In this document: one piece after another, positions 1-5,160 of the stretch
How the letters are laid out: each line of letters begins with the position of its first letter
Position numbering within the stretch: the first letter of the stretch is position 1
Origin: a virus
Lineage: Duplodnaviria > Heunggongvirae > Uroviricota > Caudoviricetes
DNA: 5,160 nt
Virus record (IMG/VR): IMGVR_UViG_2778261666_000002
Location: 1-5,160 of that record
Direction: 5' to 3' (one strand)
Position numbers and translations under genes: made by a program
The notes under the pieces: generated by a model
What the model was told of the DNA's origin: nothing
Seen by the model: the letters and a program-made list of their open reading frames with translations, nothing else
Databases searched by the model: none

Positions 1-325
1 AGTCCCAGCAAATGTTTGTCCCGTTATCGTTCAGGTTAAGGCGCGCCATTGCGTTACCTGGACTGTCTATCCATTTTTTGAGGTATAGTTCGCAATACGC
101 ATCCTCAACACCTGCTGTCCTGTGAGTTGAGCGGAGTTTTCTCCCAAATATAGCTCCGCTAGTTGGCAATACCTGCTGATACCATGAAGCAGACCAGTCA
201 CCAACGATTTCATCTTTGCTGTCTACATATAATTTTGTTGCGTAGCTTCCTTGATCGTTTTTTAATTTGCTAACGTCGGATTTTAGCGTTTTGATGTCAT
301 CAGGAATTACTGTCGATGTAGCCAT
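1..325 (-). CDS. Hypothetical protein, N-terminal 108 codons only (3' end beyond window start); unknown function
   Basis: ATG at 325..323 preceded by GAGGAAG (the orf93 stop TGA 337..335 lies inside this SD; 9-nt spacing). Hand translation MATSTVIPDDIKTLKSDVSKLKNDQGSYATKLYVDSKDEIVGDWSASWYQQVLPTSGAIFGRKLRSTHRTAGVEDAYCELYLKKWIDSPGNAMARLNLNDNGTNICWD has no stop down to position 1. Absent from the ORF track only because it has no in-window stop. Confidence 0.5.
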   Translation of the reverse strand, partial: MATSTVIPDDIKTLKSDVSKLKNDQGSYATKLYVDSKDEIVGDWSASWYQQVLPTSGAIFGRKLRSTHRTAGVEDAYCELYLKKWIDSPGNAMARLNLNDNGTNICWD

Positions 326-334
326 TTTTCTTCC

Positions 335-616
335 TCACATCCAGCCACGAAGTTGATGCTCAACAGCAACCACGTATTCATCGAATAATGACGATATTTG
401 CGAATCATTAATGATGCGCACGTTTACAAAATATCCGTCTTCCTTAACACATACCGGTTCGCCATCTTCAGTCAGTTCTCCGGTTTCTTTGTACACGTTA
501 CCTATCACGTCAATAAGAATATCATCCTGCATCGACTCGTCATCATAATAGCCAATACTCTCCATAAAGGCCGAAAAGTCGGCCCTGTCGGCAAATTTGA
601 GTGTTAAATCTTTCAT
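335..616 (-). CDS. Hypothetical small acidic protein (93 aa), start overlapping the stf stop; possible tail-fibre accessory or chaperone, function unknown
   Basis: ATG 616..614 overlaps stf TAA 618..616 (TAATG). GGGGGAG lies about 8 nt upstream. About 21 Asp/Glu against about 7 Lys/Arg. No similarity I can recognise to the lambda Tfa / T4 gp38 family. The only competing ORF is a shorter antisense one. Confidence 0.6.
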   Translation of the reverse strand: MKDLTLKFADRADFSAFMESIGYYDDESMQDDILIDVIGNVYKETGELTEDGEPVCVKEDGYFVNVRIINDSQISSLFDEYVVAVEHQLRGWM

Positions 617-2991
617 TAGATTGACTCCCCCACCTGAGCATCAGTCAATGCCTTGTGCCATATTCTGAAATTCCTGACATGACCAAATAAATGACGTAAC
701 CCGGCTGTAGTCTGGCCTCCAATACGGATAATTGCAGTGTTCTGAATATAGGACCATGTGGTTTTTGTTTCGCTGGATATACGCCCGTTACTTACTGAGC
801 ACGTAGACTGATCTGACTTTACACGCATCCCCATAACCATTTTTTCAAGCAATGCGTTTTCGTTTACCCGTCTGTTAGCTCCTCCAATATCGCAATAAGG
901 AAATCCGTCGTAATCTGTTGAACGACCGAAGCCAAGAATAATAGCCGCTCCGGTTTGATGACCGCCGGTATCAAAAACACGTGGCGCTGCATTTGGCGTT
1001 TTATACCAGTTCTTATGTACCTCACAAAGAACCGTAAAAGGAAGATTATAAAGATTATTCTTAATTGGAACTGTAACTATATCGCTTGCGCGGGTCGCCG
1101 CCGTCGTTCCTGATATAATAAAAGATGATACACAAGGCCCATTTTCTACTTGTGGGGTGGCCAGATAAATATAGTCACCAGATACGGTTGCCCCGCCCTG
1201 CTTAGGAGAATACTGTATCTGAGAACCTATTTTTAACTCCCCATCAATTGCCTGAATTGTTGCCTCTGCAAAAATCCATCCGGTAGCTTCGTCCTTTCTG
1301 ACTCTCGCTGTAATCCTTGAGGCAGCGCCGCCTGTCATATTAATTTCAAGCGTTTGTGTATCAATATATGCATCACCAAGAAAAGTTGTTGCGCTACCGT
1401 CATATTTATCAAACCGGATACGCAACCTTACCTGCAGTTCTGTTTTAAAACGACATGAGGTTGTCACGTATTTATTATCGCCTGAGACATCAACTGACTT
1501 TGTTGCAGCAATTGATGCCATATTAATGGCTGAGGTTTGCCCAATCAGAGAATCGTTACAGACAAACTTTCCATAGGTAAAACCAAAACTATCCGTCCCG
1601 GTTTCGGGAACATCCATATTTGACGATCGCCCCCAACTGGCAGGGTTTTCCGAATTGAGCATGTAGTTCGTTCTTTGCCCCTCAATAAGCAGGCCATCAC
1701 GTTCAAACCGTGGCTCGTCAATGGCAGCCTCTGTCAGCACACCAGATTTATTAATATAGGTTGCTTTCGATGCGCGTTTAAACTTTACAACCTTATCGCC
1801 AGGCATCGTTATTTCATCATCACCAATAACAATCTTTTTATATGACGGCGAAAAGCCCGTAATCATATCCAGCGAATCGTTAAACGGTATCCACACATCG
1901 GGAAGCGGCTGCAAAACTTGTTTATACGGCTCCGCAGCCTGGCTTGCATACTCTCTGGCTGCGTCTTCACTTTCTTTAGCTGCCGTCTGGCTTGCAGCGG
2001 ATGCTTTCGCCGAGTTCGCAGCCGCTGTTTCGCTTGTCTTTGCATTGGTTTCACTGGTTTTTGCTGCTTTTTGACTGTTGGCTGATGCAGTGGCAGAAGC
2101 CGCCGCCGCGCTTGCAGAACCAGCTGCGGCACTCTCGCTTTGGGCCGCTGCATCCTGACTGTTTTTCGCCGCAGTTTCGCTGGCTTTGGCATTCGTTTCG
2201 CTGGTCTTCGCTGCCGTCTGGCTGGACTTTGCGTTAGTTTCGCTCGTCTTCGCTGCTTTCTGGCTGTTAGCCGCAGCAGTTGCTGAGCCAGCAGCTGAAG
2301 TCGCAGAACCGGCTGCCGCGCTCTCGCTTTGGGCTGCTGCAGCCTGGCTGTTTTTTGCCGCAGTTTCACTGGCTTTGGCATTCGTTTCGCTGGTTTTCGC
2401 TGCCGTCTGGCTGGACTTTGCGTTAGTTTCACTCGTCTTTGCGGCTGTCTCGCTATTTTTCGCGTTGGTTTCTGATTTTTTGGCTGCTGTCGCGGAGTTT
2501 GCCGATGCAGTCTGTGAGGTCGCTGCCGCCTGTGCGCTGTTAGCTGCATTCGTTTCTGAGGTTTTCGCCGCGTTCTTCGATGATGCCGCTGCAGTTTCGG
2601 ATTTCTTTGCCGCCGCTGCGCTCTGAGAGGCGGCTTCGGCGTTGCGTGCCGCTTCTTCCACCATTTCCTCAAAACGGCGCAATGCCTCCGGCATGACATC
2701 ATCTTCCGTCATGGCACCGAGAAAATCATTCAGCGTACCTGGTCTGGAACCTTCATAGACGGTAATGGTCCCGGCATGTGAAGGCGGAAAACCTTCAACC
2801 AGCAGGGTGACGCTGTACTGGCCATACTCAACATCCATGCTGTAACGTCCGGCTTCATCCGGATTTTCAGAAGCCACCGTGTTCACCAGTACCGTGGTGC
2901 TGTTACGCTTTGCCTTCAGTTGAATAGTGCAGTTCTGTATTGGTTTTCCCGCACCATCTTTCAGCACACCTGAGATTTTTACTGCTGCCAT
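616..2991 (-). CDS. stf: Side tail fibre protein: lambda-Stf-like N-terminal domain, A/S/T/K-rich heptad-repeat shaft, C-terminal LamG/concanavalin-like jelly-roll (putative receptor-binding) domain
   Basis: N-terminus MAAVKISGVLKDGAGKPIQNCTIQLKAKRNSTTV…GRYSMDVEYGQYSV…GFPPSHAGTITVYE matches the lambda Stf N-terminus as recalled. Likely start is ATG 2991..2989, preceded by GGAG (TTTTTTGTGGAGTGGATATG); the ORF track's GTG at 2997 sits inside that SD. Stop TAA at 618..616. C-terminal end …IRIGGQTTAGLRHLFGHVRNFRIWHKALTDAQVGESI resembles the conserved LamG_3 terminal motif. Confidence 0.85.
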   Translation of the reverse strand: MAAVKISGVLKDGAGKPIQNCTIQLKAKRNSTTVLVNTVASENPDEAGRYSMDVEYGQYSVTLLVEGFPPSHAGTITVYEGSRPGTLNDFLGAMTEDDVMPEALRRFEEMVEEAARNAEAASQSAAAAKKSETAAASSKNAAKTSETNAANSAQAAATSQTASANSATAAKKSETNAKNSETAAKTSETNAKSSQTAAKTSETNAKASETAAKNSQAAAAQSESAAAGSATSAAGSATAAANSQKAAKTSETNAKSSQTAAKTSETNAKASETAAKNSQDAAAQSESAAAGSASAAAASATASANSQKAAKTSETNAKTSETAAANSAKASAASQTAAKESEDAAREYASQAAEPYKQVLQPLPDVWIPFNDSLDMITGFSPSYKKIVIGDDEITMPGDKVVKFKRASKATYINKSGVLTEAAIDEPRFERDGLLIEGQRTNYMLNSENPASWGRSSNMDVPETGTDSFGFTYGKFVCNDSLIGQTSAINMASIAATKSVDVSGDNKYVTTSCRFKTELQVRLRIRFDKYDGSATTFLGDAYIDTQTLEINMTGGAASRITARVRKDEATGWIFAEATIQAIDGELKIGSQIQYSPKQGGATVSGDYIYLATPQVENGPCVSSFIISGTTAATRASDIVTVPIKNNLYNLPFTVLCEVHKNWYKTPNAAPRVFDTGGHQTGAAIILGFGRSTDYDGFPYCDIGGANRRVNENALLEKMVMGMRVKSDQSTCSVSNGRISSETKTTWSYIQNTAIIRIGGQTTAGLRHLFGHVRNFRIWHKALTDAQVGESI
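2068..2445 (-). repeat. Two tandem 189-bp units (63 codons each) inside the stf shaft-coding region, embedded in a wider heptad-periodic region (about 1930-2650)
   Basis: 2211-2250 and 2400-2439 are near-identical at a 189-bp offset. Protein copies are residues 185-247 and 248-310 (AAKTSETNAKSSQTAAKTSETNAKASETAAKNSQ… twice), followed by a degenerate partial third copy. Confidence 0.85.
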
Positions 2992-3001
2992 ATCCACTCC
3001 A

Positions 3002-3029
3002 CAAAAAAGCCCGCCAGAATCTGCGGGCT
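3002..3029 (-). terminator. Putative rho-independent terminator after lom (minus-strand RNA: AGCCCGC-agauucug-GCGGGCU followed by UUUUUUGU), overlapping the stf ribosome-binding region
   Basis: 7-bp inverted repeat at + strand 3008-3014 / 3023-3029 with an 8-nt loop. A6 run at 3003-3008 gives a U-tract on the minus strand only. Confidence 0.55.
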
Positions 3030-3055
3030 GTCATAACACTGTGTTACCTGGCTAA

Positions 3056-3655
3056 TCAGAATTTATAACCGACACCCACGATGAAACCGTCAGTGCGCCA
3101 GTCGCCACTGCCGGAACCTTCATAAGCAATATCAATGGCCACGGATTCGGTCGGGTTAAACTGCACGCCAGCCCCCCACGCCAGAGACGTGTTGCTGTGG
3201 CGACCGCCATCACTCCCGGTCAGCACATCGTGCGTTTTCCCCTTGCTGTCAGTTACGCGGAGATAATCCCCGGAGAACGTCGAAACACGGCTGCAAGCCA
3301 CACCTGCCATCGCATAAGCACTGAACCATTCATTCACGCGCACAGACGGCCCCGCCATCATGCTGAACCAGCGGTTACGCACTGAATCTTCATGCCAGCG
3401 GGTATCGCTGTAATGCGTTTTTTGCTCATCTTTGGCATTGGCATAACTGAATGACGTCACCAGCCCCAGCGTGTCCATAAATTCATAACGGTATTTCACG
3501 TTAATGCCCTTCAGGTCATCACTGCCTGGCATATCAGTATGGGTCTGAAGATACCCGGCGCTTAGTGTGGACTGATGCTCTGCTGCGCTCGCTGGCGTAC
3601 CAGCGGCAACCAGCCAGACTACTGCGGACAGAATAACAGCACATAATTTACGCAT
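3056..3655 (-). CDS. lom: Lom/Ail/PagC/OmpX-family outer-membrane beta-barrel protein (lambda Lom homologue), 199 aa
   Basis: N-terminal signal peptide MRKLCAVILSAVVWLVAAGTPASA^AE (A-x-A cleavage site). Internal GINVKYRYE and SAYAMAGVA motifs and C-terminal IAYEGSGSGDWRTDGFIVGVGYKF with terminal Phe, matching lambda Lom as I recall it. Position directly after J is the canonical lom position. Confidence 0.93.
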   Translation of the reverse strand: MRKLCAVILSAVVWLVAAGTPASAAEHQSTLSAGYLQTHTDMPGSDDLKGINVKYRYEFMDTLGLVTSFSYANAKDEQKTHYSDTRWHEDSVRNRWFSMMAGPSVRVNEWFSAYAMAGVACSRVSTFSGDYLRVTDSKGKTHDVLTGSDGGRHSNTSLAWGAGVQFNPTESVAIDIAYEGSGSGDWRTDGFIVGVGYKF

Positions 3656-3660
3656 AATTA

Positions 3661-3666
3661 CCTCTC
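3661..3666 (-). promoter_or_regulatory. Shine-Dalgarno GAGAGG, 5 nt upstream of the lom ATG
   Basis: Reverse complement of 3656-3670 is AAGCGAGAGGTAATT, immediately followed by ATG (3655..3653). Confidence 0.6.
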
Positions 3667-3674
3667 GCTTTTCT

Positions 3675-3704
3675 GCAATAAAAAAGGCGTCATTTCTGAC
3701 GCCC
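3675..3704 (-). terminator. Putative rho-independent terminator directly after the J stop (minus-strand RNA: GGCGUCA-gaaa-UGACGCC followed by UUUUUUAUU)
   Basis: Perfect 7-bp inverted repeat at + strand 3686-3692 / 3697-3703 with a 4-nt loop. A-run at 3681-3685 on the + strand gives a U-tract only for minus-strand transcription. Confidence 0.6.
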
Positions 3705-3722
3705 GTATTGGGGTTATAAAAT

Positions 3723-5160
3723 TCAGCTGATACTGATGCCTGCGGTGGCTTTCTTCATCACCACAACCAGCAAATCGCTGATACTTGCTGTGGGATACCA
3801 GTCATTTACCAGCCATGCTGACACCGAAAACTCCAGCGTCATGTGACCGTGACCGGCAGGCATATCAATAACGCCACTGTAAATCAGCGTATTATCCAGC
3901 GCGGTACGGTTATAAATTTCAGCACCGTTTTTCCGCACTATCAGACGGCATGAGGAGTAAATATCAGTATGCTCTCTCTCATGTTTAGCGCCGCTGAATG
4001 CCACCGCCGGAATAACAATCTGCCGGTCAAACGGCTGATCGTCATAAATCCTGACGGTAATGGTCCCTGATGGCCACCGTTCCGGTGCACGGGAGTCCCG
4101 GGGGAAAGCTTTGCCCACTGTTTTAACGAGATCGCCTTCAATCTGGTTCGCGGACAGTTTTCCCAGAACCCGGCAGTTCTCGTTAATCGTGACGTTGTTG
4201 AGCGACCCGGAGTTCGCATTCACGTTACCGCTGATATCGGCATTTTTCGCCGTCAGCCGCCCGTCCGGTGTCAGGGAAAATGCCGGAGGATTACCGCCGC
4301 TGGTAATGGTGGGAGCCGTCAGATATTTCAGGAACACTTCGTTCATGAATATCTGATCGCCCTGACCAACAAACATCGGCCTTGTGTTGCCATTCGCAGG
4401 ATTAACCATCGCAATCCTGTCCGCCGCCAGCAGCACCTGACTCTGCATACCGTCAGGAGTATTCTCAATACCGGCACCAATACCCGCGATATAAAGGCGT
4501 CCGTCCTGCATCTGCTGCAGCTTCACAGCCCACATGCTGTTCAGGTTATTATTTGTATCAACCTGAACCTTCTGTATCTGCTGAATTGCCGCACTCTGGT
4601 CTTCCAGTTTCTTATTGACGGTCTGCGTGATTTCATTGCTGACATCCGTAATGGACGTCCTGATTTCAGCCAGGTCAGGCGCAAGCTGACCGTTATCAAT
4701 CTGCGTCCACAGCTCCTGAGCCAGATGGCTTTTCCCTATCTCGCCTTTGAAAAAATCCAGATAGCCGGATGCATCATCACTCGGCTGGCCAACAGCCTCC
4801 ACAAATGCCGATTTGCCAACGGTGTTCACACTGCGGATGTAAAAATAATAATCATGGCCCGGTTTGATATTGATACTGGCGGCTATCCAGTACAGCGCCG
4901 TACCAAGATAGCGGGCTGTGGTTTCAACCTGCCTGATATCGGTAATCCGCTTTTCCGAGAACCAGAACTCAAACTGTACCGTCGGGTCATAAACCGCAAG
5001 ATGCGGCGTGGCGGTTATCTGAAAATAGCCCGGCGTCAGCTCAATCCTCGACGGTGCTGCCGGTGCGGCAATCCGGAACGATACCGACGCCGGATCGCCC
5101 TGCTGCCCCCACGCATTTACCGCCCGGACTGTCAGCCTGTAGTTCCCCAGCGCCAGTTGC
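3723..5160 (-). CDS. J: Host-specificity / central tail fibre protein J, C-terminal about 479 codons; 5' end lies beyond the window. TGA stop at 3725..3723.
   Basis: Hand translation of the minus-strand frame from 5159 down to 3723 is uninterrupted (…[41 protein letters not shown]…[23 protein letters not shown]…[31 protein letters not shown]…). It matches lambda J as I recall it, including the MPAG…KK…GISI-type C-terminus. The ORF track's 368-aa call simply begins at the first in-frame GTG (4829); the frame stays open upstream of it. Confidence 0.9.

Follow-up and report, generated by a model that had tools for sequence, protein, structure and literature searches.

A chimeric lambda-type side tail fibre with a concanavalin-A/LamG-like end, probably the proximal part of a two-part fibre

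Background

Side and lateral tail fibres decide which bacterial strains a phage first sticks to, and chimeras of lambda Stf have already been engineered for retargeting delivery particles. In this work we have analyzed the stf-like side tail fibre gene located in a 5,160-nt stretch of DNA from a tailed virus of the class Caudoviricetes (IMG/VR record IMGVR_UViG_2778261666_000002, positions 1 to 5,160), the whole of which is referred to below as the window. All genes of the window lie on the minus strand and represent the end of a lambda-like tail operon, in the order J-lom-stf as in lambda; behind the stf-like gene there are a small open reading frame (ORF) for a protein of 93 amino acids (aa) and the beginning of a second, short tail fibre gene. 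Sequence comparisons and a structural model indicate that the stf-like product is a real chimera, in which a lambda-type anchor is joined to a jelly-roll end of the concanavalin-A/LamG-like kind. We consider it rather probable that the fibre is branched and consists of two parts, this protein being the proximal one, and its lectin-like end may bind glycans. The locus is otherwise ordinary, near-identical copies being present in hundreds of sequenced Escherichia coli genomes and in several named phages.

Results

The stf-like gene and its start site

The stf-like side tail fibre gene occupies positions 616..2991 of the minus strand, with the stop codon at 616-618, and is matched from end to end by phrog_1419. 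The ORF called mechanically is slightly longer (616-2997, minus strand) and comprises 793 codons counted from GTG 2997. The ATG at 2991, giving a product of 791 aa, is likely the better start, since a GGAG sequence (3001-2998) is placed 5 bases upstream of it and GTG 2997 sits within the spacer. An initial annotation, made from the sequence letters and a list of ORFs, had placed the start at 2991; the ribosome-binding context agrees with this choice, and in phage 2G7b the corresponding product is likewise annotated as 791 aa long. Residue numbers given here follow the 793-codon ORF from GTG 2997, so that the numbers of the likely real protein are lower by 2; the profile in blocks of 30 residues was made in the 791-residue numbering, an offset immaterial at that resolution.

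The phage closest to the window is Escherichia phage 2G7b, with 97% identity across 94% of its length, and the stf-like gene is 97.7% identical to 2G7b gp22. 2G7b has the same genes, under the annotations tail protein, hypothetical protein and tail fibre protein. At least 80% of the window segment 1-3100 was found in 448 of 5426 complete E. coli genomes (about 8%).

The lambda-like anchor and shaft

The N-terminal residues 5-97 (2707..2985, minus strand) constitute a lambda-type collar/anchor domain (StfN), recognized both by a Pfam family and by a solved structure. PF08400 (phage_tail_N) matches residues 5-134 (to nt 2596) with E 7e-67 and 223.9 bits, the cutoff being 26.6, and chain Ta of PDB 9e7m, the collar domain of the Ur-lambda side fibre, matches residues 5-97 with E 8e-49 at about 88% identity. 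In Ur-lambda Stf, residues 1-91 belong to the collar, 92-101 to a linker and 102-393 to a trimeric coiled coil, and four trimeric side fibres are held by a collar of twelve StfN copies (PMC12617516).

The collar domain is followed by an Ala/Ser/Thr-rich shaft (residues about 102-362; 1912..2694, minus strand), the counterpart of the proximal coiled coil of lambda Stf, and by its similarity to the lambda shaft it is predicted to form a trimeric coiled coil as well. The DNA of this region has a GC content of 0.56-0.60 and an AT skew of about -0.6. Within it a tandem repeat of 189 nt (63 aa) is found at 2114..2454 (minus strand; 1.8 copies, 90% identity), which at the protein level corresponds to copies 182-244 and 245-307, identical in 56 of 63 residues. 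The commonest close homologues, of 727-728 aa, are shorter by exactly one 63-aa unit, which indicates that the length of the fibre varies by whole repeat units. Two further ORFs overlap the repeat region, one on the minus strand (1863-2702, 279 aa) and one on the plus strand (2186-2626, 146 aa), and lambda has an annotated antisense ORF (orf206b) in a comparable position; both were dismissed as apparent side effects of the biased Ala/Ser/Thr codon usage and composition.

BLASTP against lambda orf-401 gave 59% identity over residues 5-342. In 30-residue blocks the identity to orf-401 amounts to 87, 93, 83 and 70% as far as residue 120 or so, 37-67% through the shaft and at most 23% after residue 330 or thereabouts; past residue 120 the similarity is weak, lies in repetitive sequence, continues to about residue 345 and then ends. 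The product of lambda orf-314, the distal half of Stf, shows zero similarity to the C-terminus of the stf-like protein. The match of the N-terminus to the lambda anchor was thus read correctly in the initial annotation, while the limit of about 115 residues set there proved too narrow, the whole proximal shaft being lambda-like too; the claim that the distal region is unrelated to lambda Stf holds, with the break located by the alignment at about 330-345.

The C-terminal module

From about residue 363 to the end, over some 430 residues, the protein is made of a conserved junction of about 90 residues and two mutually unrelated beta-sandwich domains, as judged from profile matches and a predicted fold; this part is called the module below. 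The junction (residues about 363-449; 1651..1911, minus strand) runs from PLPDVW to LLIEGQRTNYMLNS, and the segment 361-450 keeps 77-100% block identity against T5-like, Drexlerviridae, Nonagvirus and P2-like fibres.

The first beta-sandwich domain (residues 437-637; 1087..1689, minus strand), sharing 13 residues with the junction, is of the gene transfer agent (GTA) head-spike-fibre type. The NCBIfam model NF048003 (phage head spike fibre domain, GTA_spike_fiber) covers residues 437-637 with its positions 1-181 of 182, at 51.8 bits and E 1.4e-13, above the curated cutoff of 36, and in the AlphaFold2 (AF2) model the domain is all-beta with pLDDT above 90.

The second beta-sandwich domain (residues 638-793; 619..1086, minus strand) is Laminin_G_3-like, as judged from a sub-threshold match and from relatives of the protein. 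Its conserved terminal motif LFGHVRNFRIWHKALTDAQV is located in nt 631-777. The Pfam scan of the full-length protein (E at most 1) returned nothing C-terminal; when the C-terminal 444 aa were scanned alone, residues 741-789 matched positions 103-150 of 151 of Laminin_G_3 (PF13385). An exhaustive search of cluster representatives with the last 444 residues gave 1969 relatives, among them 52 that span the whole module at 25-78% identity, and an alignment of 53 sequences was built. Laminin_G_3 was detected at E of at most 0.01 in 33 of the 53 members (best E 1.9e-11), always within the last 150 residues or so, and four of the ten homologues checked individually pass the Pfam cutoff (P0160, 44.8 bits; P0178, 34.2; P0167, 32.2; P0140, 30.0).

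The AF2 model of the module, computed with the 53-sequence alignment, is all-beta with a mean pLDDT of 91.3 and a pTM of 0.88, and displays the curved two-sheet beta-sandwich (jelly-roll) fold of the concanavalin-A-like superfamily. The top Foldseek matches are the baseplate proteins of Pa193 and E217, over about 390 alignment columns spanning both domains; the best matches to single-domain folds are carbohydrate-binding modules, and enzymes score lower. A sequence search of PDB gave no match for the module and, besides the collar domain, returned low-complexity matches to the shaft. No similarity was found by hhalign between the sub-alignments of the two beta-sandwich domains (probability 0.1%), which argues that they are not a recent duplication.

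These results give substance to the LamG_3 C-terminal motif that the initial annotation had recognized, since residues 741-789 match that family below threshold and 33 of 53 relatives match it as well, and likewise to the segment taken there as the start of a jelly-roll (...ERDGLLIEGQRTNYMLNS...), which turned out to be the most conserved stretch of the family and the place where NF048003 begins. A jelly-roll was found and homology to lambda Stf is not continuous, as had been expected. The picture of a single LamG-like end has to be replaced by a junction plus two beta-sandwich domains, of which the second has been exchanged alone in phage ev207.

The module was also matched in seven separate stretches of a giant protein (P0220, 4244 aa), and in many hits with multiple stretches the junction/first-domain segment is the best-matching one. 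This suggests that the unit 'RFE..GLLIEG..TN' is a widely reused building block.

Conservation and exchange of the module

In the family of 53 sequences conservation is highest in the blocks 410-449 and 770-789, with 610-649 next, and the regions 450-609 and 650-769 form highly variable cores. Residues R430, G435, E439, N444, Q616, E618 and S625 are invariant across the family, the ERDGLLIEGQRTNYMLNS segment holding R430, G435, E439 and N444.

Block-wise comparison with individual fibres revealed sharp changes of identity. Against the fibre of a P2-like prophage (a myophage) the identity is 10-30% to residue 360 and then 90-100% to the end, and against lambdoid PhiR46_1 it is 93-100% to residue 360 and then 23-43% across both cores. 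The fibre of ev207 is about 97% identical as far as residue 630 or so and 10-47% identical in the second domain only; with phage 21 the identity is high from about residue 360 to about 630 and again drops to 10-47%, the drop being confined to the second domain; the late beginning of the high identity is due to the shorter shaft of phage 21. In ev207 and phage 21 the second domain has thus been exchanged independently. The module was found on at least six kinds of N-terminal anchor. These patterns of identity show that it is transferred as a unit and that exchange also takes place within it, the points of exchange lying near residues 360, 450 and 630.

The downstream small ORF and the second short fibre

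The ORF for the 93-aa protein (335..616, minus strand) begins with an ATG overlapping the stop codon of the stf-like gene (TAATG) and belongs to phrog_1361, a family of unknown function. Pfam and NCBIfam scans of the 93-aa protein were without match. Its family is small, with 369 database matches, every one of them named hypothetical; the product is 39% identical to gp23 of phage IrisVonRoten (E 3e-26), and its AF2 model (pLDDT 79.5) has no informative structural relative. A homologue was found behind the module in all enterobacterial phages examined, i.e. in lambdoid 2G7b and PhiR46_1, in phage 21 and ev207 (Jouyvirus), in tinuso (Drexlerviridae), JenP2 (Nonagvirus), IrisVonRoten (T5-like) and one P2-like prophage, and, as a longer protein of 110 aa, in CarlMeissner (rV5-like). 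It is absent beside the distant metagenomic relative P0160, which makes the three-gene cassette a feature of the enterobacterial branch and not of the whole family.

The second short tail fibre gene follows (1..325, minus strand; first 108 codons) and begins with the peptide MATSTVIPDDIKTLK, encoded at window positions 325-281. The product of the near-identical, full-length gene of 2G7b has 345 aa and contains a Peptidase_S74 intramolecular chaperone domain. In most phages with the small ORF a short fibre gene comes next; the products have 224-574 aa and differ in their receptor-binding parts and in their assembly devices, five of the distal fibres having Peptidase_S74 and the P2-like one having gp34/gp37-type domains together with a separate Caudo_TAP gene. 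These distal fibres have in common only the first 15 residues or so, M-(A/V)-T-x-T-x-I-P-x-D-I-x-x-L-K, of which 9 of 15 are invariant in six phages of five groups (lambdoid, Drexlerviridae (T1-like), Nonagvirus, T5-like and P2-like). A search of the phage collection with the peptide gave 62 records, and in the records listed in both this search and that for the module the peptide always begins some 300-400 nt downstream of the module, and on its strand.

Neither a Tfa (Caudo_TAP) gene nor a gp37-like distal tip was found at the end of the stf-like gene, the next ORF being that of the 93-aa protein, and short tfa remnants appear further on in 2G7b. Downstream of the cassette that phage has two short pieces under the annotation tail fibre assembly protein, apparently left behind when a lambda-type stf-tfa end was replaced. 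In phage 21 and ev207 the small ORF is followed by the gene of a membrane protein and then by the sitABCD iron/manganese transporter genes.

The remaining genes of the window

The lom gene (3056..3655, minus strand) encodes an Ail/Lom outer-membrane protein (PF06316, E 7e-125), and its presence identifies the locus as J-lom-stf. Of J, the gene of the central tail fibre, the window includes the 3' part (3723..5160, minus strand; cut by the end of the window), with the Ig_GpJ_C and Phage_Tail_Tip domains. This part was aligned with residues 682-1132 of lambda J and is 62% identical overall, being near-identical over residues 682 to about 805 and diverged afterwards. The window J is itself a mosaic, with a 29-residue insertion (29 alignment gap positions) and then a diverged C-terminal receptor-binding domain; judging by this divergence, its receptor may differ from the LamB of lambda.

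A terminator-like hairpin was detected by a consensus scan between lom and stf (3008..3029, minus strand) and a second one after J (3685-3704, minus strand). Both are accompanied by T-runs and lie just upstream of the ribosome-binding sites of stf and lom, respectively; terminator-like sites are no more numerous in the window than expected from shuffled sequence. Phage 21, which is without a lom gene, has an annotated terminator between J and stf.

Discussion

A two-part side fibre as the favoured explanation

The arrangement of the locus is best explained, in our opinion, as that of a lambda-like prophage with a side fibre composed of two parts. The StfN collar domain (the first 95 residues or so) fixes the fibre to the tail tip, and is followed by a lambda-like shaft, the length of which varies by the 63-residue unit. 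From about residue 363 the portable module takes the place of the lambda-type distal half and of the Tfa chaperone. Its lectin-like domains would bind a surface polysaccharide (O-antigen, capsule or the core of lipopolysaccharide, LPS) when the phage first, and reversibly, touches the cell. The module and the 93-aa protein would, moreover, jointly serve as a socket for the downstream short fibre (345 aa in 2G7b, with self-cleaving S74), which would dock through its conserved N-terminal peptide on the junction and/or on the 93-aa protein. The side fibre on the virion would in this case be branched and have at least two receptor-binding elements, and the final, irreversible binding would remain the task of the central fibre J.

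Docking is proposed on grounds of parsimony: the N-terminal peptide of the distal fibre recurs in phages whose tails are unrelated, and apart from it these phages have nothing in common at the locus but the module and the small protein. That the lectin-like domains bind surface glycans is suggested by their fold, by the variability of the cores and the domain-wise exchange, and by the fact that the first domain belongs to the GTA head-spike-fibre family; the lateral fibres of these phage groups are in general O-antigen binders, which was counted as support. The initial annotation had described a host-range module swapped onto a conserved anchor. The swap is confirmed by the sharp identity breaks, whereas the role of the module as the tip of the fibre is put in doubt by the second fibre encoded downstream, and host range is likely shared with, or dominated by, that fibre.

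Several observations weigh against the explanation favoured here. The invariant residues sit in the junction and in the inter-domain segment, outside the variable cores, a distribution more in line with a structural or docking role than with a conserved sugar site. The Laminin_G_3 score of the window protein is sub-threshold (17.6 bits, E 0.0045, cutoff 27.6), and the fold matches are not attributable to the first or the second domain individually. Phage 21 and ev207 possess the module and the small ORF and no distal fibre, so that docking is not the sole role of the module and perhaps not its role at all. In the window the second fibre is represented by its first 108 codons only, and binding or assembly experiments on the stf-like protein or its close relatives were not found in the literature.

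The case of phage 21 and ev207, where the module, followed by a 92-aa ORF, must end the fibre, leads to the view that the module is generally the terminal receptor-binding tip of an unbranched fibre, and that the short fibre attaches elsewhere or is not part of the virion. Both beta-sandwich cores are variable and swapped domain by domain, as receptor-binding parts would be, and the homologous GTA head-spike fibre binds capsule by itself. It is difficult, however, to reconcile tail-type-specific attachment with distal fibres that have neither a lambda-, nor a T5-, nor a P2-type anchor, and that in five groups with unrelated tails share the 15-residue peptide, always encoded just downstream of the module; moreover, the published multimer model of IrisVonRoten puts the distal fibre on the proximal one. 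We regard an unbranched fibre as unlikely, although it deserves consideration.

The invariant residues and the best conserved blocks are found in the junction, between the two domains and in the last strand, and this could also mean that the module is purely architectural, a knob and socket capping the coiled coil and holding the distal fibre without any receptor binding, and its closest two-domain structural match is indeed a baseplate wedge protein that holds tail fibres. A purely structural part need not, however, have cores of 20-30% identity or an independently exchanged second domain, the module is retained in phages without a distal fibre, and the top single-domain fold matches are carbohydrate-binding modules; this explanation appears quite improbable to us. 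The same fold is also compatible with an enzyme, a GH16-type glycanase or a polysaccharide lyase of concanavalin-A-like fold degrading O-antigen or capsule in the manner of tailspikes. A regex scan of residues 350-793 found neither the ExDxxE nor the ExDxE motif of the GH16 type, and with the catalytic motif absent and the enzyme folds scoring below lectins an enzymatic function was rejected as hardly credible.

Significance

The proposal of a proximal and a distal fibre can be carried further, to a universal plug-and-socket made up of the junction-lectin module, the 93-aa protein and the 15-residue peptide. Such a generalization we hold to be somewhat more likely wrong than right. If true, it would let lambda-, T1-, T5-, Nonagvirus- and P2-like enterobacterial phages swap their distal receptor-binding fibres freely, and the 93-aa protein would be a previously unrecognized fibre-joining adaptor or dedicated chaperone, without structural relative.

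Part of what is reported here was known already: near-identical genes exist in named phages, there is a PHROG of exactly this length, and earlier work on a homologue has described both its lectin-like end and the division into a proximal and a distal fibre. What is new is the mapping of the exchange points, the placing of the lambdoid version in one cassette with the T5-like, T1-like, Nonagvirus and P2-like ones, the putative conserved docking peptide and the ever-present 93-aa partner. Knowledge of the break points (about residues 360, 450 and 630), of the lectin-like end and of the probable second fibre bears on the choice of fusion points and on the prediction of host range for E. coli prophages.

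Comparison with known systems

With Ur-lambda Stf (UniProt P03764; PDB 9E7M) the window protein shares the J-lom-stf locus, the collar, the linker and an Ala/Ser/Thr-rich proximal shaft, predicted to be a coiled coil here as well. Beyond its proximal coiled coil lambda Stf has a hinge, then a six-chain distal coiled coil and a tip of the T4 gp37 type, which requires Tfa and binds OmpC; in the window protein these distal parts are all replaced from about residue 363. By comparison of sequences, the protein agrees with the lambda Stf family in its anchor and its locus and departs from it in the distal tip and Tfa.

The closest likeness at the other end is to the Gp22-Gp23-Gp24 set of the T5-like phage IrisVonRoten (Bas32). 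The gene order and the overlapping start and stop codons are as in the window, Gp22 carries the module at 63% identity over the full 444 residues, and the distal fibre has the N-terminal peptide and the S74 domain in common with the fibre of the 2G7b type. IrisVonRoten differs in its T5-type anchor and in its distal fibre, a T-shaped dual-domain protein of 574 aa as compared with 345 aa here (2G7b). Gp24 has been predicted, by a multimer model in the paper completing the BASEL collection, to attach to the proximal Gp22, and the C-terminal 'galectin-like domain' of Gp22 protrudes as a possible extra receptor-binding domain (doi 10.1101/2024.09.12.612763). In all sequence features testable within it, the window appears to match a fibre set of the IrisVonRoten type.

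The same principle, an anchored fibre carrying a second, anchorless one, is known from LtfA and LtfB of DT57C and DT571/2. Both LtfA and LtfB add O-antigen receptor specificity, and LtfB docks on a mid-shaft part of LtfA related to phiEco32 gp14/gp15, LtfA ending in its own S74 domain (PMC4728585, PMC10713586); a parsimony argument like the one used here for docking was applied to this pair (PMC4728585). The papers on LtfA/LtfB, whose descriptions were the basis of the comparison with the window, describe no partner of about 92 aa.

The first beta-sandwich domain passes the NF048003 domain model of the Rhodobacter capsulatus GTA head spike fibre (rcc01080), a beta-rich, lectin-like protein which binds capsule experimentally, in vitro (PMC10218006). 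This fibre differs from the window protein in being placed on capsid vertices, in using ten N-terminal residues as its anchor and in having no coiled-coil shaft, and the similarity of Rhodobacter phage proteins to the window module is only about 28%. To members of the Laminin_G_3/concanavalin-A-like superfamily, such as AbnA domain 4, CBM40, botulinum toxin Hcn and the pentraxins, the identity is 9-16%; the likeness of the module to concanavalin-A-like lectins is one of fold, a sugar or calcium site not being assignable. As regards Laminin_G_3 itself, the Pfam threshold is not reached by the window protein, though homologues pass it and the predicted fold agrees. The gp46 baseplate wedge protein of the Pseudomonas phages Pa193 and E217 (PDB 9B45, 8ENV) shows 12-14% identity and poor global superposition (TM 0.35), and does not end a fibre but belongs to the baseplate triplex of a myophage. 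Among the systems compared, the window protein resembles a lambda side fibre at its base and the two-part lateral fibres of T5-like phages at its end.

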